Notes: generated by a model from the letters alone, not told the origin. A stretch of 64,000 nt of DNA from Deltaproteobacteria bacterium (GCA_030262895.1 JAJSZW010000001.1:16360-80359); one strand, 5' to 3'. Shown: positions 1,527 through 58,088, counted from the stretch's first letter. Numbers and translations: made by a program.

Positions 1527-1527
1527 T

Positions 1528-1917
1528 TTAGGCTCCTGTTTCCTTTCTGATCTTCAGGATCTCGTCTTCTTCTAACGTGTTATATTTTCTATAGATTAAA
1601 ATGAGTGAAGCAAGCGCAATGCCGGTTGTGGCTATAGACACCACAATAGCCGTAAGCATGAGTACGTGGGGCAATGGATTAATATAGTTGGCAACCTCGA
1701 TAGCTTCATGGCCGTGGCCATGCCCGGACAGTATCGGAACTGTCGCGCCTGCTTTCACACCTATAGAAACGTAAAAAAGGATTATCGCGGACTGGAATAT
1801 ATTCATTCCGATTAATTTCTTGACAAGATTTTTCTTGCCAATCATCGCATAAAGCCCGATCATCATCAGAATTATATATATCCAAAAGTTGTATTTGCTG
1901 ATTACGTAGTCGAGCAT
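1528..1917 (-). CDS. mrpC: Mrp/Mnh antiporter subunit C (NuoK-like)
   Basis: ORF track gives 1528..1935. I prefer the ATG at 1917, which has GGAGG 5 nt upstream and lies just after the upstream stop. Small 3-TM protein with a NuoK/MnhC-like sequence (LIGMNIFQSAIILFYVSIG). Confidence 0.75.
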   Translation of the reverse strand: MLDYVISKYNFWIYIILMMIGLYAMIGKKNLVKKLIGMNIFQSAIILFYVSIGVKAGATVPILSGHGHGHEAIEVANYINPLPHVLMLTAIVVSIATTGIALASLILIYRKYNTLEEDEILKIRKETGA

Positions 1918-1918
1918 A

Positions 1919-2203
1919 TCAGCCTCCTTCACCATTGCGCTTTTTTCTCAACATCAGAATGCAGCCAATCGCTGCCGTAAAGACTACTACGGTCTCACCC
2001 ATCGTGTCATAACTCCTGTAATCCGCAAGCACAGCAGTAACAATATTAGGGGTTGCCGTCTTTTCCGTGGCCTCCTGAATATACTGTGGTGAAACATGCG
2101 AACTGGCCGGAGAATTGGGATCACTCCACTTAGGCATGTCTTCAACGCCATATATGAGTAATGCGCCTGTCATAATGACTGCGATTAAAGCAATAACTTT
2201 CAA
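1919..2203 (-). CDS. MnhB-related small membrane subunit
   Basis: 94 aa. Carries the motif NIVTAVLADYRSYDTMGE, typical of MnhB/Mbh-type subunits. Start overlaps the upstream stop by 4 nt. Confidence 0.65.
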   Translation of the reverse strand: MKVIALIAVIMTGALLIYGVEDMPKWSDPNSPASSHVSPQYIQEATEKTATPNIVTAVLADYRSYDTMGETVVVFTAAIGCILMLRKKRNGEGG

Positions 2204-2445
2204 TCTTTTGACCTCCTTTTTGTTTTACTAACCGCTGCAATAAACAAGACTGTTCCGACTCCAGCGCCTACGGAAGCCTCGGTAAAGGCTACATCCACCG
2301 CCCCCATTTCCGTCCATAGGAGACACATAAAGAAACTGTAAGCGCCCAAAATAATAACAGCACCCAAAAGATCTTTTACATTAATAGCAGCAATCGCACA
2401 GATTATAATAAAAAGGCAGAGTATAAGATCAAGTTGCCAGATCAT
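2200..2445 (-). CDS. MbhD/DUF4040-like small membrane subunit of the Mrp complex
   Basis: ORF track gives 2200..2481. The ATG at 2445 forms an ATGA overlap with the mrpG stop. 81 aa, hydrophobic (LILCLFIIICAIAAINVKDLLGAVIILGAYSF). Confidence 0.6.
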   Translation of the reverse strand: MIWQLDLILCLFIIICAIAAINVKDLLGAVIILGAYSFFMCLLWTEMGAVDVAFTEASVGAGVGTVLFIAAVSKTKRRSKD

Positions 2446-2768
2446 TTGCTTCCCTCCCTGGTCCATGGTTTGACACCGCACCGAAAAGCAGCTCTTGAAA
2501 TGGCGTGGGTTGCAGTGGGATTAGCCAAAAAAACAAAAACAGCGACAACGACTATCTTTATACTGTCTAAAATAGCCCCGTGATATGCTGCATGATATAT
2601 AGAAAGGCCGACAAGCGCTATAAGCACCGCCAGTGTGTCGCCTTTCCCCGTGGCATGCATCCGGGAATAAAAATCCGGAAAACGCAGGAAGCCAATGGTC
2701 CCTGTGGCAAAAAAGAAACAACCCACTAAAATCAGGATCATAGATATTCCTTTTACAATTTCCATCAA
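2442..2768 (-). CDS. mrpG: Mrp/Mnh antiporter subunit G
   Basis: 108 aa with the MnhG signature GTIGFLRFPDFYSRMHATGKGDTLA. 4-nt overlap with mrpF. Confidence 0.8.
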   Translation of the reverse strand: MMEIVKGISMILILVGCFFFATGTIGFLRFPDFYSRMHATGKGDTLAVLIALVGLSIYHAAYHGAILDSIKIVVVAVFVFLANPTATHAISRAAFRCGVKPWTREGSK

Positions 2769-3031
2769 ATTTCACCTCTCCCTTCAAAGTACTTTGCTGC
2801 CGCTAATGACCCGATAAAATTCAAAATAGCGTAAACCATGATGATATCCAAAAACATCTCTATCCTGCCATAGATAAAACCCATCAGCACCAGAACCACC
2901 AATGTTTTTGTGCCGATCGCTCCGACTCCTACAATCCGGTCTATAATAGTCGGCCCGTACACTACCCGATAGAGACAAAGTAAAACAAGCAAACAAAGGA
3001 AAATACTCACGCCTAAATAAAAATTTTCCAT
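2765..3031 (-). CDS. mrpF: Mrp/Mnh antiporter subunit F
   Basis: 88 aa, MnhF-like (LYRVVYGPTIIDRIVGVGAIGTKT). GGAG lies upstream of the ATG. Confidence 0.8.
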   Translation of the reverse strand: MENFYLGVSIFLCLLVLLCLYRVVYGPTIIDRIVGVGAIGTKTLVVLVLMGFIYGRIEMFLDIIMVYAILNFIGSLAAAKYFEGRGEI

Positions 3032-3103
3032 CTCAATACTCCAAAATTAGTTGTTAAGCTGATTAGCTGATTAGCTTAACAGCTTATTAGCCAGCTTATT
3101 GCT

Positions 3104-4039
3104 TTAATTAACCGTTAAGTTGTATTTATTAAGCTTTGAATACAATGTGCTGCGGCTCACATTAAGTTGTTTTGCAACTTTTAATTTGTTCCAGTTGTTC
3201 TCCTGCAAAATTTTCATAAGGAATCTTTTCTCATTTTCCTCAAAAGAGGTTATCCCTTCATTTTTTTCTTTTAACACTTCATGTAAAATGCGGGAAGGCA
3301 GTAACTCACGCTCAACTTTTTCACCCTTTGCCAGTAGGAAAGCGTGTTGTATTGAGTTTTCCAACTCCTTGACATTGCCTGGCCAGGAATAGTCCATTAA
3401 TATCTGCATTGTATCGGATGTAACACCGCTAACATTTTTCCCTATTTCTAGATTCAGTATTTCTAAAAAGCATTCTATTAGAAGGGGGATATCATCTTTC
3501 CTCTGCCTTAAGGAAGGCAGGTGTATATTAATTACATTCAGCATATAAGAAAATTCTTCATTAAAAGTTCCTTTTTCGACCTCTTTCCCAAGATCAGTAT
3601 TAACAGCGGCAATAATCCTGACATCTGTCTTAATCCTTTTTTTTCCTCCAAGCCTTTTTATAGACCCTTCCTGTAAAAAATCCTGAAGTTTGATCTGTGT
3701 CAATGGAGGCATTTTATCAATCTCACTCAAAAACACTGTGCCGCCATTATTCCGCTCCAGACATCCTTTCTTTTGAGATACCGCCCCTTCAAAGGCGCCT
3801 GTTTCATGACCAAAAAGTCCGCTTTCAACTATAAACCTCGGATAAGCTGAGCAGTTATACACATCAAAAGGTTTGTCTTTTCTTGAGCTGTTCAAATGGA
3901 TACATCTTGCCACCAATGCTTTCTCAGTACCCTCTTCACCCTGAACCACAACCGAGGTATCAGTAGGAGCCAGATTCAATATCATATTGTAGATCTGCTG
4001 CATTCTGGCAGACTGTTTATTGATCTCCTGTATCTTCAA
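3104..4039 (-). CDS. Receiver-less sigma-54 enhancer-binding-protein paralog with degenerate ATPase motifs and a C-terminal Fis-type HTH
   Basis: 311 aa, clearly paralogous to the AAA+/HTH part of the 623-aa activator at 12407..14278. Walker A reads GEEGTEKA (canonical GESGTGKE), Walker B reads FLSEI (canonical FLDEI), GAFTGA reads GAFEGA, and YYRLNV reads SYMLNV. The start overlaps the mrpB stop by 4 nt. Confidence 0.8.
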   Translation of the reverse strand: MKIQEINKQSARMQQIYNMILNLAPTDTSVVVQGEEGTEKALVARCIHLNSSRKDKPFDVYNCSAYPRFIVESGLFGHETGAFEGAVSQKKGCLERNNGGTVFLSEIDKMPPLTQIKLQDFLQEGSIKRLGGKKRIKTDVRIIAAVNTDLGKEVEKGTFNEEFSYMLNVINIHLPSLRQRKDDIPLLIECFLEILNLEIGKNVSGVTSDTMQILMDYSWPGNVKELENSIQHAFLLAKGEKVERELLPSRILHEVLKEKNEGITSFEENEKRFLMKILQENNWNKLKVAKQLNVSRSTLYSKLNKYNLTVN

Positions 4040-5287: not shown

Positions 5288-5424
5288 GCCTGAACGAAAA
5301 CTGCTAATTTTTCCAATTTCTGCGCCAGGCTTAAATTTTAATCCTCAAAATACTCAATGTATTCCTGCGGTTAAAATTTGCGCCTTCCTTGAACTTGAAA
5401 AAATTTTCTAGTTTTCGTTCGGGC
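5288..5424 (-). repeat. B-family nested-palindrome element, copy B3 (inverted relative to B1/B2)
   Basis: The reverse complement matches the ~70-nt core of B1/B2 (gttcaaggaaggcg.aaatttta...ggaatacattgagtatt..gagg.ttaaaattt). It has its own terminal inverted repeat, cctgaacgaaaact / agttttcgttcggg. Confidence 0.8.
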
Positions 5425-5487
5425 ACTAAATGTGGCCTTATTTTCCTGCGTTCACACAAAAAATACGTTTTCCGAATTCAAAACGTT

Positions 5488-6288
5488 TTATCTAAAAGGA
5501 ACCAGCAATGCAGGAACAGGGGTTCTCTCTACTACGTTGCACGAAGATTTTCCTACTAGAATATCTTTAAAGCTTTGCCCCGACGTTGTCCCCATAACTA
5601 TTGATGTAGAATTATAATCTTGCGCTGCAAGAATAATCTCATCAACAGTTTTGCCTGCATATACATGATATTCTGCGTCAATTCCCTCTTTTATGCATTT
5701 GTTGCGCGTTTCTCTTAATTTTTCCATAAGCTGTCTCAGATCACGCACAGTCAATTTCTTGTGTATTACATTTACAATATCAAGCTCGTTGATTAATTGC
5801 TTAAAACCAAGTATAATCTGAAGCGCTTTTTCAGATGCCTGGGACCAATCGGTCGCAAACAAAACACGCTCAAATGCCCCTTTTGAAGTAAGCTTCAATC
5901 CTGTTTCATCTTTGTCAACTATCAGAACAGGCACGCTTGCCTCCTTAATAAGCTTTTTAACAATAGGATCGCCAAACAAAATTCTTCTTTTCTTTTTATC
6001 AAAATGAACCACGGCGAATGATATCTGATTTTCATGGATTGTACTCAAAACACAACTGGGCAAATCTCCAGAGTCAAATCTTATAGAAGCTTTCAAGCCA
6101 TAGCTGTTTAATTTTTCTTTCCATTGCTCAAACAGCTCAAGAGCTGCATCATTCTTGTCTTTTTCTTCATCTATTACACAAAGGAAAATTATTTCCTTGA
6201 AGCCAATATCGCTAAAACCTGACAATCCTTCCAGCACCTTGGAACTTGGGCGCCTAAGATCTGTAGCATATAATATTTTTCCGGCCAT
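5488..6288 (-). CDS. Tandem universal stress protein (two UspA domains)
   Basis: 266 aa with two Usp-like halves (YATDL..., FATDWS...IVMGTTSGQS). GGGGAGA Shine-Dalgarno upstream. Confidence 0.8.
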   Translation of the reverse strand: MAGKILYATDLRRPSSKVLEGLSGFSDIGFKEIIFLCVIDEEKDKNDAALELFEQWKEKLNSYGLKASIRFDSGDLPSCVLSTIHENQISFAVVHFDKKKRRILFGDPIVKKLIKEASVPVLIVDKDETGLKLTSKGAFERVLFATDWSQASEKALQIILGFKQLINELDIVNVIHKKLTVRDLRQLMEKLRETRNKCIKEGIDAEYHVYAGKTVDEIILAAQDYNSTSIVMGTTSGQSFKDILVGKSSCNVVERTPVPALLVPFR

Positions 6289-8043: not shown

Positions 8044-8207
8044 GTAACTACTCAGGTTGATAGGCTGAAGGCTGAAGACTGTTAGGAAAAAGCGCATTTT
8101 GAAGCCATGTTTGGTGCAAGAATCAGATGTTTCCGCTAAAGTACGGCAATCGTGCTCTTCTGACCCCTTCAGCCTTCAGCCTGACTACGTGACTACGTGA
8201 GTAGTTA
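8044..8207 (+). repeat. A-family MITE-like element, copy A1
   Basis: Termini gtaactactcagg...cgtgagtagtta. Arms ggctgaaggctgaag / cttcagccttcagcc. About 90% identical to the reverse complement of 56413..56584. The right end covers the stop codon of the receiver gene. Confidence 0.85.
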
Positions 8208-8643: not shown

Positions 8644-10272
8644 CTAAACCTTCTTTCCCTGAAGCCGGATGGTAAATGTTGTTCCCTTGCCGAGTCGGGA
8701 TACTACATCCATGGTTCCGCCGTGCTCATTTACAATCTTTTGTGTAACCAGTAACCCGAGGCCGGTACCTCGCGTTCCTTTTGTACTAAAAAATTCGGCA
8801 AAAAGCTTGCTTTGAGTTTCCTCGCCCATACCACAACCATTGTCTATAACTTCGAATTCCACGCCGCTCTTGTTCTCACGTCGTGTCCTTACTTTTACAT
8901 ACCACTGTTTTTGCGTATCAAGATCAAAAACACAGGCATCTATTGCATTTGAAACCAGATTAAGAAGACAACTATGTATTCCTTTTGGGTCAAGATATAT
9001 CTCACCCATCTCCCTGTCAATATCCCTGATCAGGTCGATATCATATTCCTTTGCCTTTGATTCCATAAGATCGCAGACTTCATCTGCTATAATATTCGGA
9101 TTATATATTTCATATTCAGGTTCTCGTTCTTTAGAATAAGTGAGAAGATCCAGAACAAGATCGGAAACTTTATGTATATTTCTTTCCACCATCTCCCAGC
9201 CGGTTTTCAATTTTTTTTGCTGGCGTTCCCTTTCAGTGTTTATATCTATAATTCGCTTCAGAGATCGTGCTTGAAGAGGCGCGGTAAACATATTGCTATA
9301 GTCTATTTTATTTTCCGCCGCCCAGTCAGCCGCTCCCTTTTTAAGAGCGGTATTTACTATGTAAAGACCGCCTTTCAAGCCATTTAAGATGTTTTTGACG
9401 CCATGAGCAAGACCGGCTACGGTCTGCCCTATAGCTGCCAGTCTTTCAGATTTAATCAGTTCTTTTTCCAGGCGTTTAATTTTTCTAAGATCCTGGAAAA
9501 AGCCGACACTTCCTATTGGCTTGTCGCCTTCATACAGCATTGCGCACGAAAATCTTACAGGCACTGCTTCGCCGCTCTTTGCTGAAACAAATGCTTCATC
9601 TCCAACAAAAATATCGCTTGCATTCCGATCTTTACCTGCAAAAACATCAGAGATTTTTTGAGATATCCCTTCAGGGTAAAAATTGCCGGCATTCATGGCA
9701 CTTTTGGCTTCATTCACAGTATATCCAAACATCTCTTCCGCAGCAGGATTAAATATTATTATATTCTCTTCTTTATCCGTGGCAACAATCCCATCGATCG
9801 AACGCTGTACAAGCTTATCCTCAAACTCATATCTTCTCTTGATCTCTTCGGTTTTTTCCTTTACCATATTCCAAAGATCATTGGCATAGTTATTCAATGT
9901 CTTTTTTGTTTTCAGCCGTTCCTCAGCCCTTTCTAAGGCAATTGAAAGGAGTTGATCGCTCACCGGCTTGGTTATAAAATCAGATGCTCCAAGATGAAGC
10001 GATTGTATGGCGGATTCCATATCACCATGTCCGGTAATAACAATTACCTCTACCTCAGGGTTAATCTCCTTGATTCTTCTCAAGACTTCTATTCCATCCA
10101 TCCCGGGCATCTTTATATCGGTAAGCACTATTGGAAAGAATTCTTTTTGAAACAAGTCAATTCCCTGCTGTCCGCTCGCTGCAGTTGCTACATCATATCC
10201 ATCACTTTTAAGAGATATGCTGAAGACTTTTCTAATGCCCTCTTCGTCATCGATCAGTAAAAGTTTTGACAT
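8644..10272 (-). CDS. Hybrid sensor histidine kinase (receiver-PAS-HisKA-HATPase)
   Basis: N-terminal receiver (LLLIDDEEG, TDIKMPGMDG), PAS region, H-box LAHGVKN, ATPase boxes NAIDA, DNGCGM and GTGLGL. ORF-track start is 10293; the ATG at 10272 (MSKLLLIDD) is preferred. Confidence 0.8.
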   Translation of the reverse strand: MSKLLLIDDEEGIRKVFSISLKSDGYDVATAASGQQGIDLFQKEFFPIVLTDIKMPGMDGIEVLRRIKEINPEVEVIVITGHGDMESAIQSLHLGASDFITKPVSDQLLSIALERAEERLKTKKTLNNYANDLWNMVKEKTEEIKRRYEFEDKLVQRSIDGIVATDKEENIIIFNPAAEEMFGYTVNEAKSAMNAGNFYPEGISQKISDVFAGKDRNASDIFVGDEAFVSAKSGEAVPVRFSCAMLYEGDKPIGSVGFFQDLRKIKRLEKELIKSERLAAIGQTVAGLAHGVKNILNGLKGGLYIVNTALKKGAADWAAENKIDYSNMFTAPLQARSLKRIIDINTERERQQKKLKTGWEMVERNIHKVSDLVLDLLTYSKEREPEYEIYNPNIIADEVCDLMESKAKEYDIDLIRDIDREMGEIYLDPKGIHSCLLNLVSNAIDACVFDLDTQKQWYVKVRTRRENKSGVEFEVIDNGCGMGEETQSKLFAEFFSTKGTRGTGLGLLVTQKIVNEHGGTMDVVSRLGKGTTFTIRLQGKKV

Positions 10273-10290: not shown

Positions 10291-10357
10291 CACAGTTGGC
10301 AGTTAACGGTTTCTCAAAACATAAAACCGTGAACTGTAAACCGACAACCGTGAACTG
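10291..10357. repeat. GTGAACCG-word hairpin element (copy a)
   Basis: cacagttggcagttaacggtt - loop - aaccgtgaactgtaaaccgacaaccgtgaactg. It fills the gap between two kinase genes. The right arm is nearly identical to the one at 38706..38731. Confidence 0.7.
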
Positions 10358-14278: not shown

Positions 14279-14295
14279 AACAATTCTTTATATTT

Positions 14296-14462
14296 TGAGA
14301 CCGTTGAAAAATGATCAGTTTTGTTACAGTTCAAGGAAGGCGAAAATTTTAAACGTAGTAATACATTGAGTATTTCGAGGCTTAAAATTTGAGCCTGACA
14401 CCGACACTTTAGTGAAGCTTTAGCGCTAATTGGACAAAAGGGGGCGTTTTGCAAAGGTCTCA
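14296..14462 (+). repeat. B-family nested-palindrome element, copy B1
   Basis: Terminal repeat tgagaccgttgaaaa / ttttgcaaaggtctca. About 88% identical to B2 (51076..51217) apart from a ~24-nt insertion. It starts 18 nt from the activator ATG at 14278. Confidence 0.85.
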
Positions 14463-17523: not shown

Positions 17524-17638
17524 TTTAATAGGAATTTCCATTGTAACTTCTCAAAAAGTTCGGCTAAAGATAAAAAAGATTCGCCCCAATCAGGGCGATC
17601 ACAAGGATCGCCCCTACTAATTTAATTAAGAGACAATT

Positions 17639-31598: not shown

Positions 31599-31773
31599 AT
31601 GTTATTTTTCCTTTCACAGGATTTAGATTGTATCAAAAAGCTTGACCTTTTCCTATCTGAATAAAAAAATGATGTCAATAGATCAGATTTTGTAATACAG
31701 GGCAAACGCATTTGGAAATTTTATTCCTTGATTTAAAGCGGAAATATTCTTATATATCAAAAGTTAAAATATC

Positions 31774-31955
31774 ATAACTACTCAGGTTGGTTAGGCTGAA
31801 GACTGAAGACTGAAGACCTTTAGGGAAAAGACTCCCAGAAGCCAATATTTTCTTAAAGCGGCCTGAAATTTTGTCTTAAACTTAGAGAATAACGCTCAGG
31901 AATCATCTGTTTCCTTCAGCCTTATAGCCTTCAGTCTAAACACCTGAGAACTTAC
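31774..31955 (+). repeat. A-family MITE-like element, copy A3 (long variant)
   Basis: ataactactcaggttggttaggctgaagactgaagactgaag ... ccttcagccttatagccttcagtctaaacacctgagaacttac. A4 is its inverted deletion derivative. Confidence 0.85.
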
Positions 31956-31987
31956 ATATACTTTCCACGGCTATAAACTGCGCTTTT

Positions 31988-41881: not shown

Positions 41882-42121
41882 ATGAATAAGGCAGCCTTAA
41901 CAAAGCATGAGATTTACAATAAGCTGTTTGGATTTACCGAACATGATTTAGATGCTATTGCCAATTTTATCGATTTTATGAGGCATAAGAAAAAGCTTGA
42001 AACAAAAAAGGTATTCAAACTTGAAGGCATTCTTAAGGATCATGATATAGACTTTTCTGATCTGAAGGAGTTCAAACAGCAAACCTGGAAGCATGTTGAC
42101 CAGGAGTTTGGAAATGGATAG
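41882..42121 (+). CDS. Antitoxin-like small protein (DUF2281/VapB-like)
   Basis: 79 aa with an IANFIDFMRHKKK-type helix. Its stop overlaps the ATG of a PIN-like ORF (ATGGATAG), the classic toxin-antitoxin gene coupling. Confidence 0.55.
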   Translation: MNKAALTKHEIYNKLFGFTEHDLDAIANFIDFMRHKKKLETKKVFKLEGILKDHDIDFSDLKEFKQQTWKHVDQEFGNG

Positions 42122-42224
42122 TTTTGTGACCGACACTCAGGCCCTTGTAAAATTTATGATGGGCAAAAAGCCAGGTAGGGTGCATTCTATGCACTATCAA
42201 CGGCATATGGTATCATCTATATAA
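42114..42224 (+). pseudogene. Truncated PIN (VapC-like) toxin, only ~19 native codons left
   Basis: MDSFVTDTQALVKFMMGKK resembles a VapC N-terminus with the first catalytic Asp. The reading frame then runs into REP doublet A and stops. Confidence 0.45.
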
Positions 42225-42306
42225 TGATAAAATGTCTTGATGAGCAAAATTGAATGTTTTTTGGTGCGTAAAACACGCCCTGCGGTTTACAAACAATGAT
42301 TGAGCA
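42169..42306 (+). repeat. REP doublet A (two inverted GTAG-hairpin REPs plus spacer)
   Basis: gtagggtgcattctatgcac and, inverted, ggtgcgtaaaacacgccctgc. About 85% identical over ~140 nt to 46189..46329. Lies directly upstream of the RayT remnant. Confidence 0.8.
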
Positions 42307-42312
42307 CGGCTT

Positions 42313-42450
42313 ATGCCGAACTATCGACGGGCAAATATTAAAGGTGGCGCTTATTTCTTTACCGTGGTGACTTATCGGCGACAAAATTTCTATGCAATAA
42401 AAATGTCCGAAAGGCATTACTTGATGGTATCCGGCATAGGGTGGGCGATG
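42313..42450 (+). pseudogene. REP-associated tyrosine transposase (RayT/TnpA_REP) 5' remnant, frameshifted and truncated
   Basis: MPNYRRANIKGGAYFFTVVTYRRQNF matches the RayT N-terminus (E. coli YafM has YYIKGGTWFFTVNLRNRR). A 1-nt loss in a T-run near 42388 shifts the frame to LCNKNVRKALLDGIRHRV. Similarity ends near 42440, and that frame continues into the methyltransferase ORF. Confidence 0.7.
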
Positions 42451-42494
42451 ATAAAACGGTTTGTAACAAAACAATTTTGATAGGATTTGCTACA

Positions 42495-45353
42495 ATGGCT
42501 ACTAATTCCCTTCAATTAGTTGACTTTATTAACCCTGACGGCATTTATATCCCAGGTTTGATACCTATAGGCAGCGCCACGGATACGATAGGTCTTAGCA
42601 TCGACGAGCAAGTTGCGGTCTTTGATGCTGAGTCGTTTAAACACATAAATTTCGTATTTTTTCGCCGTTTTTCAGATGGCCGATCATCTCAAATTTTGGC
42701 TTACGTTGTCGATAACTCTGACGAACGGCTTGACGAAAAGGCATTAGCCGAACTTCACTTGCAGGTTTGGCTTCATGGTACGGCGCCATTGCTCTATATC
42801 GCCTGGCCAAGTCGAATTGATGTGTTGACATGCGCGCGAGGACCGGATTTCTGGAAAGCTGAAAACGAGGAGTGCCAGTATAATCCTGCGAAGAGACTTG
42901 AAGCTGAAGCTCTGAAAACTGCCGGCGCTATCACCAGTGAACTACAAAAGTTCTCAGCGTTGCGCCTTGCTGATGGAACATTTTGGGAAGAGCCTGGCAA
43001 TAAGAAATTAGCAGACCACGACAAGGCGGCGCACCAATCGCTAATTCAGGCAGTGGTGGAAGCTGATAGTGATCTTGATGGAGAAAAAAATCCTATTCTA
43101 CGTCGTCTGCTTCTGTTAATGGTGCTGATTAAGTATCTTGAGGATCGCCGAGTCTTTCCAAATAGAGGTTGGTTTGGCACGTTCCACAAAGGAGCAAAAA
43201 GCTTTTTTGATGTCCTGCAAGGCGGTGAACCTGAAGAGGTAAACAGGCTGTTGAATTTCCTAGAACGAAGATTCAATGGTGACATATTTGCTTTCCAGCG
43301 AGAAGATATCACAAAATCAATCCTTAAAACATTTGCATATCTTGTTGAAGCCAAAACGCTGAAAAAGCAGCGATACCTTTGGCAGCAATTTTCTTTCGAG
43401 CATCTGCCGGTTGAAATAATCAGCCATCTGTACCAGCGATTCGTTGAGGGCGGGCATGGTACTGTTTACACGCCTCCTTTCCTGGCATCTTTGCTTTTGG
43501 ATCACGCAATACCCTACGATAAAATCACCGGTAGAGAACGCATTTTAGACCCGGCTTGTGGATCGGGAGTTTTTCTTGTTGGAGCATTCCGGAGATTGGT
43601 CAATGTCTGGCGTAGTCGTAATGACTGGGAGCGTCCAAACGTCAATACTCTTAAACGAATTCTTATAGAGAGCATTTATGGGATCGAATTAGATTCAAAC
43701 GCTGTTGATCTGACAGCGTTTAGCTTGTGCCTGGCTATCTGTGATGCATTACAGCCGGATGTCATCTGGCGAGACTTAAAATTTAATCCTCTGCGCAAAT
43801 CAAATCTGTTTGAAGCAGATTTTTTTAGCGTTCTTCTTGAATCCCAGCAAGGTGAATCTATTGTTTGTGAAGGAGGATTCGATGTAATCATAGGCAATCC
43901 GCCCTTTGAATCCAAACTTTCAACCGCCGGGGAAAAAGTTAATAAAATTGCTCAACAGCAAGACAGTATTCGCGGAAAACTGCCGGACAAACAAACGGCA
44001 TATCTATTTCTGGAACAGGCATTGAATCTTCTTCGGCCTAACGGCAAAATTTGTTTAATTCAGCCATCGGGCCTGCTGTATAATCGCAAGACCGAAAACT
44101 TTCGTAATGCAATAGCTCGAAAGTGCAGAATCAAGACAATCCTTGACTTTACTTCTATTCGCAAACTCTATGAAGCGGACCCTAAAACCGTTGCAATATT
44201 TGCTGAAGTGGGTAAACCCAAAGAAAATCATTGGATTGCTCACTGGACATTTCGTCGAACAGTAAGTGTCAACGAGAGGATCTGCTTTGAACTGGATCAT
44301 TACGACCGGCATCGTGTTACACAAAAACAGGCCGAAACTGATTCCTTTGTATGGCGTGCGAATCTTCTTGGTGGCGGACGATTGCTTGATATGTCACAAC
44401 GTCTTCGGAGCATGCGTACACTTGCAGAATATGTTGAGCAGAATGGATGGGATTATGGGGAGGGGTTCATCGCCGGAAAAACGGGGAAACGAGCCCCCGC
44501 ACCTTTTTTAACGGGCAAGCCATTTCTTCCTACTCGGGCTTTCACCGATTCGGGTATTGACGAGACCAAAATTGAAACGGTTACAGATACACTATTTGAG
44601 AGCCCAAGATCAGAGGATCGTTTTACTCCACCACTCATTTTAATAAAAGAGAATGAGTCTCTCCCAGTTGTTTTTTGGAATAAAGGGTTTATTGCATACC
44701 GCGATAAGATCGTTGGAATCCATGCGCTCAAGTCCCAGGTTTCTGACCTACGCAACTTTTATAAATTTTTCCTCAGTAATCACGACATCTATCGGTTCTG
44801 TTGCACCCTGAATGGAACACAATCGTTGGTGGGCAAGTCCACCGCGATCCTTAAGCAAGATCTTGATATATTGCCTTGTCCCGAAGATTCGGAAGACCTT
44901 TCTTTCTCTTTTTGGGAGGAGGCGCTATGCGAAGATGTCCTTAAATATATGACCAGCTATGTACGACTCGGACAGAATTCAGAGTTACTAAAAACAGCAG
45001 CGGATATCAACGATCTTCGAGAGTATGCCGGCATGTTTATTCGTATGCTTGGCAGTGTATACGATAACTTGCAGGCATCCGACCCTGTTTTTCTTAATGG
45101 ATTGACCTGCCAACCATTCTATTTTGGCGAACGCCCAAATCTCAACTGGCTTACTGAACATCCGGAAGATGAACTGCGAAAACTTATCTATAGCGAAAAT
45201 CACGAACATTTGCGGACAGTCAGGTTGTTGCGATTGTACTGCGAAAACGTCCTGTTGCTTGTGAAGCCGGACCGGTTACGTTACTGGATACGCTCAACAG
45301 CAATTCGAGATGCCGATGAGACTCTTTTAGATTTACGCAGGCAGGGATACTAA
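42495..45353 (+). CDS. Large N6-adenine DNA methyltransferase with MmeI/PglX-like architecture (N-terminal domain, helical connector, gamma-class MTase, C-terminal specificity region)
   Basis: Motif I ILDPACGSGVFLVGAF, motif IV IIGNPPFES, and TVYTPPFLA upstream. Connector LRRLLLLMVLIKYLEDRRVF...FLERRFNGDIF. The ORF track starts at GTG 42441, inside the RayT remnant; the first ATG is 42495 and the true start is uncertain. Confidence 0.8.
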   Translation: MATNSLQLVDFINPDGIYIPGLIPIGSATDTIGLSIDEQVAVFDAESFKHINFVFFRRFSDGRSSQILAYVVDNSDERLDEKALAELHLQVWLHGTAPLLYIAWPSRIDVLTCARGPDFWKAENEECQYNPAKRLEAEALKTAGAITSELQKFSALRLADGTFWEEPGNKKLADHDKAAHQSLIQAVVEADSDLDGEKNPILRRLLLLMVLIKYLEDRRVFPNRGWFGTFHKGAKSFFDVLQGGEPEEVNRLLNFLERRFNGDIFAFQREDITKSILKTFAYLVEAKTLKKQRYLWQQFSFEHLPVEIISHLYQRFVEGGHGTVYTPPFLASLLLDHAIPYDKITGRERILDPACGSGVFLVGAFRRLVNVWRSRNDWERPNVNTLKRILIESIYGIELDSNAVDLTAFSLCLAICDALQPDVIWRDLKFNPLRKSNLFEADFFSVLLESQQGESIVCEGGFDVIIGNPPFESKLSTAGEKVNKIAQQQDSIRGKLPDKQTAYLFLEQALNLLRPNGKICLIQPSGLLYNRKTENFRNAIARKCRIKTILDFTSIRKLYEADPKTVAIFAEVGKPKENHWIAHWTFRRTVSVNERICFELDHYDRHRVTQKQAETDSFVWRANLLGGGRLLDMSQRLRSMRTLAEYVEQNGWDYGEGFIAGKTGKRAPAPFLTGKPFLPTRAFTDSGIDETKIETVTDTLFESPRSEDRFTPPLILIKENESLPVVFWNKGFIAYRDKIVGIHALKSQVSDLRNFYKFFLSNHDIYRFCCTLNGTQSLVGKSTAILKQDLDILPCPEDSEDLSFSFWEEALCEDVLKYMTSYVRLGQNSELLKTAADINDLREYAGMFIRMLGSVYDNLQASDPVFLNGLTCQPFYFGERPNLNWLTEHPEDELRKLIYSENHEHLRTVRLLRLYCENVLLLVKPDRLRYWIRSTAIRDADETLLDLRRQGY

Positions 45354-45355
45354 AC

Positions 45356-46075
45356 ATGAATAAGGAGCGCACTGAAGGAAAACTCACATCCGGAATTGAT
45401 CGGGCCACGAGTACGCTTGTTCTGAGAACGATCACCTTTGTGCGTCAGCAATTGCCGGCCTGGAGGGACGACCCTGATCGGCCTGATGAACAATTAGAAA
45501 ACAAATTGAATTTGCAATTGTGCAAGTTCCTCGACTCACGCGCCAGGAACGATTTTCCTATGGTTCGCTTTGATCATGAAGAGTATCAGACAGGGCGTCG
45601 TAGCGTCGATCTTTCAGCATCTCCGGTTGAAAAAATGGTAATCGGTGCACAAATGTATGCCATCTACAACCCTTTCCTCGTCTTTGAATGTAAGCGACTT
45701 CCTGCCCCTTCAAAAGACCGTAAAAAGGAGTATGTTACAGGAGGGGTAGATAAAATAAGTGGCGGGATTCAACGATTTAAACTTGGCCTTCACGGCGCAG
45801 GTCTGGATTCTGTAGTAATGATTGGTTATGTGCAAGAGTACTCCTTACGCTACTGGTTCCGCAAAATCAATGAATGGATTTCGGAACTTGCCATCAGCGC
45901 CATAGCAGATACCTGCATTTGGAATGATAGCGAATTACTTGAGATGATAGATGAATACGTGCCAAAGGGTCTCGCGACCTGTCGATCTGTCCATATGCGA
46001 ACTGATAGCACGACGAGTAGTGATATAACAATCCATCATCTTTGGATTGCGATGAACAGGCAACCCGAAAAATAA
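45356..46075 (+). CDS. PD-(D/E)xK nuclease-like protein, partner of the methyltransferase
   Basis: 239 aa. Starts 3 nt after the MTase stop. Candidate catalytic core: DHEEY, RRSVDLS, then ~25 aa, then LVFECKRL. Confidence 0.6.
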   Translation: MNKERTEGKLTSGIDRATSTLVLRTITFVRQQLPAWRDDPDRPDEQLENKLNLQLCKFLDSRARNDFPMVRFDHEEYQTGRRSVDLSASPVEKMVIGAQMYAIYNPFLVFECKRLPAPSKDRKKEYVTGGVDKISGGIQRFKLGLHGAGLDSVVMIGYVQEYSLRYWFRKINEWISELAISAIADTCIWNDSELLEMIDEYVPKGLATCRSVHMRTDSTTSSDITIHHLWIAMNRQPEK

Positions 46076-46188
46076 TACGATTGATTCGGCAAATGAACCG
46101 ATTTAGTCAAGAACTTGCAGAATCTGTTGCAGGCCGCCGATGTTTACCTTATGGGAATTTATGTAGAAGAAAGTAGTGGACATCCCAT

Positions 46189-46329
46189 AGCCAGGTAGGG
46201 TGCATTCTATGTACCATCAGCGGCATGCCTATCATCGCATACATGAATGATAAAATATCTTGACGGGCAAAATCGAATGTTTTCTGGTGCGTAAAACGCA
46301 CCCTACGATTTACAAACAATGATTGAGCA
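46189..46329 (+). repeat. REP doublet B
   Basis: gtagggtgcattctatgtacc and, inverted, ggtgcgtaaaacgcaccctac (perfect REP hairpin gggtgcg-tttta-cgcaccc on the minus strand). Direct repeat of 42169..42306. Followed by fic instead of rayT. Confidence 0.8.
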
Positions 46330-46364
46330 TGATCTGATATGCAAGGAACTTAGGGAAATATATT

Positions 46365-47192
46365 ATGCTTAGTTTTTTAGAAGGTCTTGACGGCGATATT
46401 TGCAAAGCGCTTATGGCTCAACTGCGCAACCTCTGGACACACACATCTACGGCGATTGAAGGCAATACCCTGACTCTTGGTGAAACAGCATTTGTTCTTG
46501 AGGAAGGGCTTACGATTTCAGGCAAATCTCTCAAGGATCATGAAGAGGTTGTTGGACACGCCAGGGCAATTGATTTTGTTTATGATCTTATTAGAAGAGA
46601 ATCCGATCTAACTGAAAAAGACCTGTTTGATTTGCATAAGGCTGTGCAGACGGAACAGATTTTTGATGTCTATAAGCCCGTTGGCGCATGGAAAGTAGAA
46701 CCGAATTCCACGGTTGTTGTTTCCGGCGATACCCAGACCATCTTTGAATATGCTCTCCCAAAAGATGTGCCGGAACTCATGCAAAGCTGGCTTGCCTTGT
46801 TTCAAGAAACCTGTAAAGAAAATGTAGTAAAAAAAGAGGCGGCATTGACAGCCTATGTGTATCTTCATGTTTCCTTTGTCAGAATTCATCCGTTTTGGGA
46901 CGGAAATGGCCGGATGGCTCGTCTCATCGCAAATGTTCCTGTAATCAGGGCTGGTTATCCCCCTATCATTATTCCAAAAGAGCGTCGTCAGGAATACATA
47001 GAGGCCCTGTCGGAATATCATCTATCGGTAGGCACTGTTACCGCCCGGAGTGAATTGTTGCCTGATGTTAATAAGCTGGACAGGTTCAAACAGTTCTGCG
47101 CTGAATCCTGGTCAGGGTCGATCAAGTTGGTGGATAATGCCCGTAGAAAGCAGCAGGAGCGAAACCAACAGAAAAACAAAGGTATTAAATAA
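46365..47192 (+). CDS. fic: Fic-domain protein (AMPylase family) with N-terminal auto-inhibitory motif
   Basis: Active-site motif HPFWDGNGRMAR, which fits HxFx(D/E)GNGRxxR. The N-terminal STAIEG fits the (S/T)xxxE(G/N) inhibitory helix. Confidence 0.85.
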   Translation: MLSFLEGLDGDICKALMAQLRNLWTHTSTAIEGNTLTLGETAFVLEEGLTISGKSLKDHEEVVGHARAIDFVYDLIRRESDLTEKDLFDLHKAVQTEQIFDVYKPVGAWKVEPNSTVVVSGDTQTIFEYALPKDVPELMQSWLALFQETCKENVVKKEAALTAYVYLHVSFVRIHPFWDGNGRMARLIANVPVIRAGYPPIIIPKERRQEYIEALSEYHLSVGTVTARSELLPDVNKLDRFKQFCAESWSGSIKLVDNARRKQQERNQQKNKGIK

Positions 47193-47306
47193 AAGATCGT
47201 CTCATCTACCAGACAAAATTAGCACTGGATGCCCCCAAGCCCTGAATACGCCCGGAGAAAAGCATTCAAAAAATCTGTAATTGTCGGCTAAACTTATAGG
47301 TTTTCG

Positions 47307-47445
47307 CAGATGAATTGATACTCTATATTGCATGATGCGACCAATGTAACACTGTGTATAGTATGCTGATTTTTAGCGCCTAAGCGCAGATTCCCTTTTT
47401 TTAAGTGAAATCAAGAGGATATATATTTTAGTATCAATTCATGTG
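47307..47445. repeat. Small palindromic element at the right edge of the island
   Basis: cagatgaattgatact (47307..47322) and agtatcaattcatgtg (47430..47445) are 15/16 complementary, flanking ~107 nt. Confidence 0.6.
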
Positions 47446-47460
47446 CGAAGATCTATAGGT

Positions 47461-50175
47461 TTAATTATAATTGTCGCTCATATTGCGCAGAACGTAAGCC
47501 AGTATCCCGCCATGCCTGTAGTAACTGAGTTCTATTGGAGAATCAATTCTTGCAATGACCCGGAATTCAGTTTTTTTGCCGTCTTTTCCTTGAGCAAAAA
47601 CACTGAGTTCCTTCAACGGCTCAAATTTATTTTCTATTCCAGCTACTTCATAAATCTCTGTTCCATCCAGACCCAGGGATTTATGGTTTTCACCCTGTTT
47701 GAACTGGAGCGGCAGGATTCCCATACATATTAGGTTGCTTCTGTGTATGCGTTCAAAACTTTCAGCAATTACCGCCTTTATACCTATGAGATATGTTCCC
47801 TTGGCGGCCCAGTCGCGTGAACTGCCGGTACCATAATTTTTTCCTGCAATTACAAGCAATGGCGTAGCTTCTTTTTGGTATTGCATTGCCGCTTCATATA
47901 TTGTCATTTTTTGTCCATCTGGTAAAAAAACCGTCCAGCCGCCGTCAATGCCGGGTACAAGCTTATTTTTTAAGCGGATGTTTCCAAATGTTCCTCTCAG
48001 CATTACTTCATGATTCCCGCGGCGTGAACCAAACGAATTAAACTCAGAAGGAGTTAAACCCTGGTCGATAAGATATGCCCCTGCCGGGCTGTCAACCGGA
48101 ATTACCCCTGCCGGCGATATGTGATCGGTTGTTATGCTATCGCCCAGCAATGCCAGAATCCTGGCTCTTTTTATATCCTGAAGTTCAGGAATTGTTTTGT
48201 TTATGTCTTTTAAAAAAGGGGGTTCTTTGATGTATGTGGATTTTGAGTCCCAATTAAAGAGTGTTCCTTCAGGAACAGGGAGAGTTTTCCATTGATTTGA
48301 TCCTTCAAACGCATTTTCATAAGCTTTTTTATACATTTCAGGACGTATAACTCTTTTCACGGTGTTTTTAATTTCTTCTGTGGATGGCCAGATTTCACGA
48401 AGATATACAGGCTTGTCGTTGTTATCCAATGCAATTGGTTCTTTATCAAAATCAATATTTATCTTTCCGGAAATTGCAAAAGCAATGACTAATGCCGGTG
48501 AAGCGAGGAAATTCGCTCTGGTAAGAGGAGAAATTCTTCCTTCAAAATTGCGGTTGCCGCTGACAACAGATGCTGCCACAAGGTCATGGTCTTTTACCGC
48601 ATCAGCTACCGCCTTTGGCAGAGGGCCGCTGTTTCCAATACAGGTAGCACATCCATATGCCACAAGATGGAACTTTAAAGCCTCAAGATACGGCATAAGC
48701 TCTGCTGCTTTTAGATAATTGATTGCAGCTTTTGATCCTGGAGCAAAGCTGGTTTTGACCCATGGTTTTACTGATAGTCCCCGTTCAACGGCTTTTTTGG
48801 CCAGCAGTCCTGCGCCGATCAGGACATTTGGATTTGATGTATTGGTACAGCTTGTGATTGATGCAATTACAACTGATCCGTGGCTGATCTTAAATTTTTC
48901 GCCATGCATATCTATATCAATTTCATTTTTTATACTAACTTCTGTAGATGGTCCGTCAGTTGAAGACGCATCCTTAAAGTCATTTAAAAAAGTTTTTTTG
49001 ATTTTAGAGAGAGGAATTCTTTCTTGTGGACGTCTTGGGCCTGCCATGCTCGGCTCTATGTCGCTCATGTCGAGTTGTATTGTATCGTTAAAAAGCGGAT
49101 CTTCCGTTGTTTTTGTTCTGAAAAGCCCCTGTTCTTTACAATAGCTTTCTATCAGGGTAATAACTTTTTCAGAGCGACCGGTTAAACGAAGGTATTTTAT
49201 TGTTTCATCATCCACAGGGAAAAAACCCATTGTTGCACCATATTCAGGAGCCATATTTGCTATAGTAGCACGATCTTCCAAGCTTAAGGCATTAACGCCG
49301 GGTCCAAAGAATTCAACAAATTTTCCAACCACTCCTTTTTTTCGCAGTAACTCGGTAATGGTGAGCACCAGATCTGTGGCTGTTGTTCCTTCAGGTAGTT
49401 CGCCGGTTAATTGAAAACCTGTCACTTGTGGCGTAAGCAGGTAATATGGACTGCCCAGCATAACAGCTTCCGCCTCTATACCTCCGACGCCCCAGCCGAC
49501 CACACCGATTCCATTGATCATTGTTGTATGTGAATCAAGGCCGACAAGGGTGTCAGGGAAAGCCATCCTCTGGCCGTCATTATTTTTGACAAATATAACT
49601 CTTGCAAGATATTCCAGGTTTACCTGGTGTATTATACCCGTGGCTGGAGGTACGACGCTTAAATTTTCGAAATTTTTCTGGCCCCATCGCAAAAAGGTGT
49701 ATCGCTCAAAATTACGTTTGAATTCTTTTTTAACATTATATTCAAAAGATTCTTTGGACCCAAAAGAATCAACCTGAACCGAATGGTCTATGACCAGCTC
49801 AACAGGAATATGAGGATTTATCTTTATTGGATTTATCTGCAAACGTTTTGCAGCTTCACGCATACCAGCCATATCCACTAAAGAGGGGACTCCGGTAAAA
49901 TCCTGCAACAGTATGCGGGCAGGCATAAAAGGCACTTCATGATATACCGGGGCATCAGCTTTCCATCCGGCCATATTTTCTATATCGCTTTTTTTTATAA
50001 TATTACTGTCTTCATTTCTAACAAGGTTTTCAAGCAAGATTTTTATGCTAAAGGGCAATCGGTCAATTCCAGTAAAACCGGAATCCGCTAATTTGCTGAG
50101 ACTGAAATAATTAACTTGACCATCTGAAGTGTTTAAGGTGGATTTTGTTCCAAAACTGTTCTTGAAATCAGCCAT
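47461..50175 (-). CDS. acnA: Aconitate hydratase A
   Basis: 904 aa. AcnA/IRP-type aconitase throughout, with Fe-S ligand regions (ITSCTNTSNP, YGCATCIGNSG). Confidence 0.95.
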   Translation of the reverse strand: MADFKNSFGTKSTLNTSDGQVNYFSLSKLADSGFTGIDRLPFSIKILLENLVRNEDSNIIKKSDIENMAGWKADAPVYHEVPFMPARILLQDFTGVPSLVDMAGMREAAKRLQINPIKINPHIPVELVIDHSVQVDSFGSKESFEYNVKKEFKRNFERYTFLRWGQKNFENLSVVPPATGIIHQVNLEYLARVIFVKNNDGQRMAFPDTLVGLDSHTTMINGIGVVGWGVGGIEAEAVMLGSPYYLLTPQVTGFQLTGELPEGTTATDLVLTITELLRKKGVVGKFVEFFGPGVNALSLEDRATIANMAPEYGATMGFFPVDDETIKYLRLTGRSEKVITLIESYCKEQGLFRTKTTEDPLFNDTIQLDMSDIEPSMAGPRRPQERIPLSKIKKTFLNDFKDASSTDGPSTEVSIKNEIDIDMHGEKFKISHGSVVIASITSCTNTSNPNVLIGAGLLAKKAVERGLSVKPWVKTSFAPGSKAAINYLKAAELMPYLEALKFHLVAYGCATCIGNSGPLPKAVADAVKDHDLVAASVVSGNRNFEGRISPLTRANFLASPALVIAFAISGKINIDFDKEPIALDNNDKPVYLREIWPSTEEIKNTVKRVIRPEMYKKAYENAFEGSNQWKTLPVPEGTLFNWDSKSTYIKEPPFLKDINKTIPELQDIKRARILALLGDSITTDHISPAGVIPVDSPAGAYLIDQGLTPSEFNSFGSRRGNHEVMLRGTFGNIRLKNKLVPGIDGGWTVFLPDGQKMTIYEAAMQYQKEATPLLVIAGKNYGTGSSRDWAAKGTYLIGIKAVIAESFERIHRSNLICMGILPLQFKQGENHKSLGLDGTEIYEVAGIENKFEPLKELSVFAQGKDGKKTEFRVIARIDSPIELSYYRHGGILAYVLRNMSDNYN

Positions 50176-51075: not shown

Positions 51076-51217
51076 GAGACCTTTGAAAAATGTTCAATTT
51101 TGTTCAAGTTCAAGGAAGGCGAAAATTTTAAATGTAGGAATACATTGAGTATTTCGAGGCTTAAAATTTGAGACTGACGCTGAAATTGGGCAAAAGGGGG
51201 CGTATTGCAAAGGTTTC
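51076..51217 (+). repeat. B-family nested-palindrome element, copy B2
   Basis: gagacctttgaaaaatg...gttcaaggaaggcgaaaattttaaatgtaggaatacattgagtatttcgaggcttaaaatttgag...cgtattgcaaaggtttc. Ends 14 nt before the dsrM ATG. Confidence 0.85.
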
Positions 51218-56412: not shown

Positions 56413-56584
56413 GTGACTACTCACGTAGTCAGGCTGAAGCTGTTTAGGCTGAAGGCTGAAGGGGTCAAAAAAGCACGATTGCAGTACTTTGGCGGAAATA
56501 TCTGATTCTTGCACCAAACATGGCTTCAAAATGCGCTTTTCCCTAACAGTCTTCAGCCTTCAGCCTATCCACCTGAGTAGTTAC
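56413..56584 (-). repeat. A-family MITE-like element, copy A2 (inverted)
   Basis: gtgactactcacgtagtcaggctgaag...cttcagccttcagcctatccacctgagtagttac. Its reverse complement aligns with A1 at ~90% identity, with one indel near one end. Lies between convergent dsrP and fdhD. Confidence 0.85.
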
Positions 56585-57935: not shown

Positions 57936-57942
57936 TTTTATT

Positions 57943-58059
57943 GTAACTACTCAGGCGTTTAGACTGAAGGTTATAGGCTGAAGGAAACAGATGATTCCTG
58001 AGTGTTATTCTCTTTCCTAAAAGTCTTCAGTCTTCAGCCTAACCAACCTGAGTAGTTAC
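57943..58059 (-). repeat. A-family MITE-like element, copy A4 (short, inverted) between rplU and rpmA
   Basis: gtaactactcaggcgtttagactgaagg...cttcagtcttcagcctaaccaacctgagtagttac. Its reverse complement equals A3 minus a ~60-nt internal segment. Confidence 0.85.
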
Positions 58060-58088
58060 GTTTTATTTTATATTAAGGAGTTGTAGTA

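Follow-up and report, generated by a model that had tools for sequence, protein, structure and literature searches.

In a 64,000-nucleotide stretch of a Deltaproteobacteria bacterium genome (GCA_030262895.1 JAJSZW010000001.1:16360-80359), hereafter the window, two direct repeats of about 140 bp bracket a DNA methyltransferase gene, and the first of them is followed by a short, broken open reading frame (ORF). The analysis described below indicates, with a probability that we put at roughly 70%, that this locus is a single wrecked REPtron, meaning a gene for the Y1 transposase RayT (TnpA_REP) together with its flanking doublets of repetitive extragenic palindromes (REPs), lying inside a horizontally exchanged defence block. 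The host is a Desulfobacterales metagenome-assembled genome (MAG) near Eth-SRB1/SEEP-SRB1-type bacteria. Positions are counted from the first nucleotide of the window, and loci retrieved from other assemblies are designated by L and a number.

The direct repeats and the rayT pseudogene

Copy A (42169-42306, 138 nt) and copy B (46189-46329, 141 nt) lie in direct orientation on the plus strand and are identical in 122 of 143 alignment columns. This corresponds to 85.3% identity (89.7% when gap columns are excluded) and agrees with the ~85% given in the original prediction, which had been made from the window alone; the longest exact runs common to both copies measure 23 nt and 21 nt. Each repeat consists of an inverted pair of GTAG-hairpin REPs with a spacer of ~70 nt, followed by a tail of ~25 nt. 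More specifically, copy A starts with AGCCAG and continues with a plus-strand REP (42175-42194), a 69-nt spacer, a decayed minus-strand REP (42264-42284) and the tail GGTTTACAAACAATGATTGAGCA, and copy B shows the same order with AGCCAG, a plus-strand REP (46195-46214), a 72-nt spacer, a minus-strand REP (46286-46306) and the tail. The REP unit is defined by GTAG immediately followed by a perfect stem of 6-7 bp with a 3-nt loop (GGTGCRT-NNN-AYGCACC), and the stem variants GCAT..ATGC and GCGT..ACGC are both present within the window. Two inverted GTAG hairpins had been described in each repeat; this holds for three of the four units, but the minus-strand unit of copy A is degenerate and reads GCAGGGCGTG..., with GTAG changed to GCAG and one stem mismatch. 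In copy B, the plus-strand REP carries a single stem change (GCAC to GTAC) and the minus-strand REP forms a perfect 7-bp stem.

Allowing up to three mismatches, GTAGGGTGCRTTYTAYGCAC has four matches in the 64-kb window against 0.03 expected, all of them inside repeats A and B. These four units, confined to a single locus, are the only ones in the window, where no dispersed copies were found; the sister haplotypes described below contain no REP unit. To look further afield, one genome per species was scanned for exact matches to GTAGGGTGCRTNNNAYGCAC, which returned at least 120 stretches (L001-L120), the matches listed coming from Gammaproteobacteria, Desulfobacterota, Planctomycetota and others, with the source genome not among them. 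Among these listed matches, the free R/Y positions of the stem are complementary in 178 of 181 instances (G..C in 149, A..T in 29), the loop varies freely, and a C at +1 after the motif, present in 93%, completes the 7-bp stem. Inverted pairs with GTAG facing outward number 37, with spacers of 5-129 nt, against two inward pairs. A rayT-like N-terminus lies within the fetched stretch at only three of the loci, as would be expected if the REPs are dispersed. The motif is a real and widespread family whose hairpin is upheld by covariation. A looser scan of the window for GTAGG plus a hairpin gave just one extra, unrelated hairpin at 17593-17617; it is a lone GTAG hairpin on the minus strand of an intergenic gap, belongs to another sequence class (GTAGGGGCGATC-CTTGT-GATCGCCC, 8-bp stem) and may be a singleton from another REP family.

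The ORF after copy A begins at 42313 with MPNYRRANIKGG... and is the remnant of a rayT gene. Its first part (42313-42434, plus strand) aligns with codons 1-41 of the intact rayT of L158 and is 91% identical in DNA to the intact rayT of L170. A 1-nt deletion in a T-run (42387-42389) shifts the frame at codon 26, as confirmed against the intact relatives L158 and L140. Similarity had been thought to be lost near 42440; codons 1-41 do stop at 42434, but a second piece had been overlooked (42435-42476, plus strand), which comprises codons 75-88 (GIGWAMIKRFVTKQ; WAMIKRFVTKQ) in the original frame and is 97.7% identical to positions 946-989 of L158. The two pieces are separated by a 101-nt internal deletion between TCCGG and TTCGG (TCGG/CCGG microhomology), with which codons 42-74, including H60-L61-H62, have gone. 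The remnant lacks the HUH motif, the catalytic Tyr region and everything past codon 88, after which the methyltransferase module is joined.

When the frameshift is repaired, 42313-42440 matches the NCBIfam profile NF047646 REP_Tyr_transpos (E=2.4e-7) over positions 1-43 of 146, with a score of 30.8 bits that is under the 80-bit cut-off because the remnant is a fragment. A Pfam profile search of the remnant gave no match, and querying 5.8 billion proteins with the 44-aa remnant recovered two fragments only, leading to L138 and L140, and no intact gene. Three statements of the original prediction stand on these data: the nucleotide missing from the T-run, the RayT identity of the remnant, and, from the ORF map, the continuation of its frame into the methyltransferase ORF. 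Since the HUH motif and the catalytic-tyrosine half are absent, the stump is a catalytically dead RayT (TnpA_REP) pseudogene. The REPs and rayT of the window are inert: a transposase is lacking, one REP has a broken stem and GCAG in place of GTAG, and the 64 kb contain no further copies.

Intact relatives and the methyltransferase junction

A metagenome scan with the doublet-spacer pattern yielded nine matches, two of which (L153 and L160) were rejected as chance matches inside a coding region. The same scan led to L158, where the doublet and tail precede an intact 182-aa rayT that is ~90% identical over the N-terminal stump of the window; its product scores 186 bits against REP_Tyr_transpos and matches E. 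coli TnpA_REP (PDB 4ER8) with E=8e-43. The copy A unit precedes intact rayT in L158 and L167, and in L140 it precedes a rayT N-terminus at which the contig ends; copy B is 87% identical to the L140 doublet. Full doublets in direct orientation lie on both sides of the intact rayT of L167, with a tail-like stretch after the 3' doublet, while in L158 the upstream doublet is full and a half unit follows the gene (minus-strand REP and tail, then an ATG-like vestige, 1300-1357). The intact rayT genes of L158, L167, L169 and L170 are all flanked by cognate REPs, and so is the window's remnant with its cargo, copy A being upstream and copy B downstream. The doublet is shared with intact relatives, and the identification of the hairpins as GTAG-type REPs in inverted doublets is supported.

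The settings of these relatives differ. In L167-L169, on contigs from separate samples, the intact RayT relatives (74-80% identical) sit between TcB/TcC-like and TcA-like genes, a conserved, non-defence position, and the intact rayT of L170 adjoins carbamoyltransferase genes; members of the lineage thus also occur outside defence islands. Besides its intact rayT, the 300-3620 region of L158 holds three partial copies of doublet, tail and rayT start, two of them cut identically after codon 12, and these partial copies bracket a Septu PtuA gene (PADLOC 6.5e-141). In L138, a REP interrupts rayT at codon 41 and is itself followed by Uma2. The tail in L140 (3400-3445) and L158 (660-703) contains, 3' of TTTAC, a clean 44-nt insert that consists of one REP; it reads TTTAC/AGCCATGTAGCCAG-REP-...GGTAC/AAAC, with TAC/A at both bounds, and is absent from the window and from L154, whose doublet is itself preceded by ATTTAC. 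This insert shows that REPs of this lineage do move, and that they insert in an IS608-like, target-specific manner.

The methyltransferase module (42477-46085, plus strand) encodes a 952-aa Eco57I/type IIG-like N6-adenine methyltransferase (42495-45353; Pfam Eco57I 2.8e-25, N6_Mtase 2.2e-19; PADLOC REase_MTase_IIG 3.7e-38) and, on the same strand, a 239-aa protein (45356-46075) from a family of at least 1873 unnamed proteins. The latter had been labelled a nuclease, a label that profile, sequence and fold searches do not support: no match was found in Pfam, NCBIfam, PADLOC or PDB sequences, and its structural model (predicted local distance difference test, pLDDT, 64.7) has no Foldseek match at E below 0.2. 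The sole hint of a nuclease, of the PD-(D/E)XK type, is a D...ExK pattern (D85, E111, K113) conserved in 30 homologues.

Comparison of the module with other genomes reveals the history of its junction. The segment 42442-46085, whose first 35 nt belong to the rayT piece, shows 94.6% DNA identity to L141-L150, where the module occurs in other genomic contexts, after an HEC-01 pair (PARIS-like AAA_15 + DUF4276) and between metabolic genes. Homology to L141 begins at 42442, and this locus carries rayT codons 77-88 as well as a partial doublet (decayed plus-strand REP and spacer) upstream of the HEC-01 genes. In L154, among unrelated neighbour genes, a doublet is followed by a rayT whose internal deletions differ from those of the window but which is joined to the methyltransferase at the same point, after codon 88. 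As this junction is common to the window, L154 and the L141 group, the fusion of rayT and module is old and predates the split of these lineages. The cargo was thus recombined into a rayT gene, as predicted, and the composite of doublet, truncated rayT and methyltransferase has since been remodelled differently in each lineage. L151, which lies inside a different defence cluster, is 89% identical over 42476-46059; homology begins just past the rayT piece, and the module is present there without rayT piece and without REP. At the other end, no significant homology continues past ~46100 in comparison with the downstream sequence of L141 and L151. Just after the 239-aa gene of L141, we also observed an insert (8730-8935) resembling a miniature inverted-repeat transposable element (MITE), with terminal inverted repeats of ~22 nt and a 9-bp duplication, AAGATTAAT.

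A strain-variable block at a defence hotspot

The repeats, the rayT pseudogene and the module belong to a 5.3-kb accessory block (42171-47455) between a vapC stump and the stop codon of acnA, with a GC content of 43.9% compared to 39-40% in the flanks. The last conserved gene to its left is a 79-aa ORF paired with vapC, a putative antitoxin (41882-42121, plus strand), whose identical protein occurs on 18 contigs and which has only a weak DUF2281 match. Using this neighbouring protein and the Fic protein described below, 17 related loci (L121-L137) were obtained from 25 contigs. In the sister haplotypes, the 79-aa ORF overlaps by 8 nt an intact 129-aa PIN gene, the product of which matches PF01850 PIN in L121 (E=7e-11). 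The window retains codons 1-19 of this vapC (PIN toxin) gene as a stump (42114-42170, plus strand) that ends at the left edge of copy A, and 42170 is where homology ends against all six PIN-intact haplotypes (L121, L123, L125, L126, L128, L129). Similarity to L121 resumes at 47456, at the acnA stop codon. The block begins on the left where doublet A has its outer end; the junction reads AAAAAG/CCAGGTAGGG and is ambiguous by 2 nt.

The block of the window was assembled independently in L122, L124, L127 and L134, the last being 100% identical over 42096-47308. The six PIN-intact haplotypes have flanks that are 93-99% identical and quite different cargo, and contain neither the repeat nor any REP. 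Their alternative cargo includes a 497-aa protein with HEPN/MNT; DUF499/DUF3780/DUF1156/DUF3800; a 1696-aa DEAD/MZB helicase with SNF2; and a second PIN/Phd pair. Altogether, the interval from the vapB-like gene to acnA is hypervariable, with at least five cargo sets, and vapC is intact in every haplotype but that of the window. The 5.3-kb block is a strain-variable accessory insert at a defence hotspot. Synteny of the acnA region is not conserved in more distant relatives, so that no 'empty site' is definable. It had been suggested that the two repeats could recombine with each other; this is possible in principle, but neither recombinant nor deleted alleles between A and B were found among the 17 related loci, and exact identity does not exceed the 23-nt run.

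Within the block, a gap of 103 nt (46086-46188) separates the module from copy B, which is followed by a gene for a 275-aa Fic-domain protein (46365-47192, plus strand; Pfam Fic 1.1e-15; PADLOC PDC-S04 4.7e-31, SoFic 5.8e-21). The cargo genes are of defence type, with a type IIG-like methyltransferase and a Fic protein of the PDC-S04/SoFic kind, the latter being a defence candidate. The right edge is occupied by a long inverted repeat (47289-47463, 34-nt arms, 107-nt loop) that touches the acnA stop codon and folds as RNA with -64.6 kcal/mol (z=-7.3). It is not REP-like and could be a MITE-like or structured element. Other repeats are dispersed in the window: an inverted pair of 139 nt (95%; 8044-8182 and 56446-56584), a family of ~100 nt with three copies (5308-5431, 14292-14404 and 51076-51194), CTGAAG-rich repeats (31766-31956 and 57942-58067), and a 45-nt repeat of the AACCGTGAAC type with four copies (at 10316, 16695, 38690 and 62204).

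Origin of the locus and comparison with known systems

From the observed anatomy, homologies, breakpoints and allelic variation, we infer the following order of events. The intact element would have resembled those of L158 and L167, with AGCCAG, plus-strand REP, spacer, minus-strand REP and tail flanking rayT in direct orientation, and RayT would have bound the GTAG hairpins in single-stranded DNA and nicked beside them. The type IIG-like methyltransferase and 239-aa module would then have been joined to rayT after codon 88, displacing the catalytic-tyrosine half; the 1-nt frameshift and the 101-nt microhomology deletion, with its loss of the HUH motif, would have come later. Both flanking units would persist as repeats A and B, with fic just outside B, and the 5.3-kb block would have come to lie at the vapBC-acnA hotspot with the outer end of doublet A as its left end and with vapC deleted past codon 19. 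Illegitimate or microhomology recombination probably produced the joins, and nicking by RayT or the formation of hairpins at REP ends may have favoured it; the joins show microhomologies of AG (vapC/doublet), CGG (101-nt deletion) and T (CAAT/T, at rayT/module). The repeats presumably have no current function other than as possible recombination substrates. Given that the repeat unit is present on both sides of intact rayT in L167 and L158, one overwritten REPtron already predicts two direct repeats around the cargo, and copy B may represent the 3' flank of that locus, in which case fic would lie beyond it.

Several observations weigh against this account. In the 103 nt that precede copy B (46086-46188), no significant similarity to the rayT 3' end was detected, which makes the assignment of copy B to the 3' flank of the same locus a matter of parsimony and not of proof. 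At several loci, the left end of a REP unit adjoins a truncated gene, namely vapC in the window and rayT in both L138 and L158; in L140, an unannotated ORF ends at a REP unit too, and as it has no Pfam match (an earlier label as a RhuM N-terminus was dropped), this truncation is putative. In addition, three independent rearrangements fall within rayT codons 38-43, inside ~14 nt of one another: the 101-nt deletion of the window (42424-42434), the REP insertion of L138 (~6115-6128) and a 14-nt deletion in L154 (~395-410). Together, the left-end truncations and this cluster hint at a process that is more site-directed than random decay. The cluster was spotted post hoc among ~10 breakpoints and is therefore a lead only; it could reflect a fragile or targeted site, or coincidence.

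The next explanation in strength, possible though distinctly less probable than a single wreck, is that copy A with its truncated rayT and copy B with fic derive from the 5' regions of two rayT loci, each of which was overwritten, fic having replaced the second rayT near its start codon. Copy B indeed has a full tail followed at ~46338-46350 by TATGCAAGGAACT, a candidate vestige of a rayT start resembling TATGCCGAACT, and L158 holds several independent rayT 5' fragments (codons 1-12), so duplication does happen. The vestige, however, matches in only 11 of 13 nt. A tail with an ATG-like vestige also follows the minus-strand REP downstream of the intact L158 rayT, and in L167 a tail-like stretch comes after the 3' doublet; such features consequently belong to the repeat unit as it occurs upstream and downstream of one and the same gene. 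The original prediction that cargo replaced RayT loci twice is correct for the replacement at copy A, but the second replacement is not established, one locus being sufficient.

An active role for the element is unlikely. According to this explanation, the plus-strand REPs would act as transposon-like ends for RayT supplied in trans and form a platform for the capture and mobilisation of REP-bounded defence segments by one-ended, peel-and-paste or RayT-initiated adjacent-deletion events, loosely like ISCR/IS91 capture and IS200/IS605 transposition. It would account for the left boundary of the block in vapC, within 2 nt of the outer end of doublet A, and for the occurrence of the composite in the second context of L154, where it starts with AGCC and is preceded by ATTTAC. 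The 44-nt insertion 3' of TTTAC shows that REPs of the lineage insert, and pieces of the repeat unit adjoin cargo in other loci, as around Septu PtuA in L158 (REP, tail and rayT start) and at the REP-cut rayT before Uma2 in L138. The cargo junctions, however, are scattered within rayT (codons 88, ~12, 41 and ~2) and within the spacer (L141) instead of lying at REP cleavage sites; the right ends of the module (~46085) and of the block (47455) are not at REPs; and L151 contains the module without any REP. Furthermore, the rayT of the window is dead, one of its REPs carries the GCAG that nearly abolishes cleavage in one published system (PMC8266576), excision or recombinant alleles were not found among the related contigs, and the intact relatives reside in non-defence contexts. 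The generalisation that REPtrons of this lineage are gene-capture and shuffling platforms of defence islands, with nicking at plus-strand REP ends, a TTTAC-type target and one-ended joins or adjacent deletions, is slightly more doubtful still. If it were true, defence modules would have been repeatedly fused into or next to rayT and carried between genomes, in a single-strand, HUH-driven analogue of ISCR/integron-style cassette assembly. Reading the repeats as integron attC sites was rejected, as there are no RYYYAAC/GTTRRRY core sites at the repeat ends and no integrase among the ORFs at 39-50 kb; a MITE reading of the repeats was rejected as well, no target duplications being present.

Retention of the doublets for the benefit of the cassette, through transcript punctuation, mRNA stabilisation or use of the rayT leader as an expression signal for the methyltransferase and fic, is also improbable. 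The methyltransferase ATG lies 19 nt past the junction and the fic ATG 36 nt past copy B, both after a rayT-derived leader, and REPs are generally known to influence mRNA stability in enterobacteria. Sigma-70-like promoter and terminator-like sites in the doublets, however, do not exceed shuffle expectation, and an Rfam search of the doublets gave zero matches. Folding of the whole doublet is no better than that of shuffles (z -0.5 to -1.5) and hence gives no evidence of a long REPIN hairpin in addition to the stems of the individual REPs. Decay is visible in one REP, and the module occurs without doublets in L151. Finally, an assembly chimera, conceivable because the source is a MAG and repeats can mis-join contigs, has next to no probability, as several independent assemblies from NCBI, ENA, JGI and Logan show the same arrangement, including the junction of vapC stump and doublet A.

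The wreck of one REPtron, our preferred explanation, is the decayed form of a known kind of element, and its context in horizontally exchanged defence DNA is the mildly unusual point. RAYTs have been described as single-copy genes at fixed extragenic positions that are vertically inherited and absent from horizontally transferred elements (PMC3116915, bioRxiv 10.1101/2021.07.10.451892), and the window departs from this picture of single copy, fixed position and absence from transferred DNA. In contrast to the portrayal of vertical inheritance, an E. coli-type RayT locus has here been travelling with defence DNA that is exchanged horizontally in sulfate-reducing Desulfobacterales. Across several genomes, rayT has been repeatedly cut and fused to defence genes, which, if not random, would link HUH single-strand nicking to the turnover of defence islands. 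The single-REP insertion 3' of TTTAC provides a clean natural example that could guide work on the cleavage site of this RayT group, and recognition of the relic keeps the stump and the repeats from being mis-annotated.

Compared with the E. coli REPtron (PDB 4ER8; PMC3333891, PMC3479197, PMC8266576), the lineage shares a homologous Y1 HUH enzyme, as found in L158, and a tnpA_REP/rayT gene flanked by REP/BIME sequences with 5' GTAG and hairpin in inverted pairs. TnpA_REP binds single-stranded REP hairpins, requires GTAG, cleaves at CT (or CA) beside the REP and can rejoin strands (PMC3333891, PMC8266576). E. coli REPs need a bulge in the stem, whereas the REPs here have none and form a perfect palindromic stem of 7 bp around a 3-nt loop. 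Further differences are that the gene of the window is a pseudogene without HUH and Tyr in strain-variable accessory DNA, and that the window has no dispersed REPs. REPIN-RAYT systems (Pseudomonas fluorescens and others) resemble the locus in their inverted REP doublet of ~100 bp with a less conserved spacer beside a RAYT gene. They differ in that the present locus is absent in six sister haplotypes despite their 93-99% identical flanks, that the composite is found in L154 and L141 too, and that every doublet with this type of spacer recovered to date is linked to rayT, none being dispersed.

With IS200/IS605 elements such as IS608, the lineage has in common a Y1 HUH enzyme and subterminal hairpins. 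IS608 inserts 3' of TTAC, and the 44-nt REP insertion 3' of TTTAC in L140 and L158 resembles this target. The element here is nevertheless apparently not mobile as a gene plus its ends, and membership of IS200/IS605 was rejected, since the L158 RayT scores 20 bits with the IS200 model, which has a cut-off of 55, and no tnpB is present. The block itself resembles defence islands with toxin-antitoxin borders in its five or more alternative cargo sets (restriction-type methyltransferase, Fic, HEPN/MNT, DUF499/DUF1156, helicases, PIN/Phd), except that no integrase or attachment site was identified here and the REPtron relic is the only trace of a mobile element. The REPs themselves resemble those of the group 3 REPtrons of Stenotrophomonas maltophilia and Marinomonas (PMC8266576), which are also perfect palindromes with a 3-nt loop next to GTAG; cleavage in those systems is at CT or CA near the REP.

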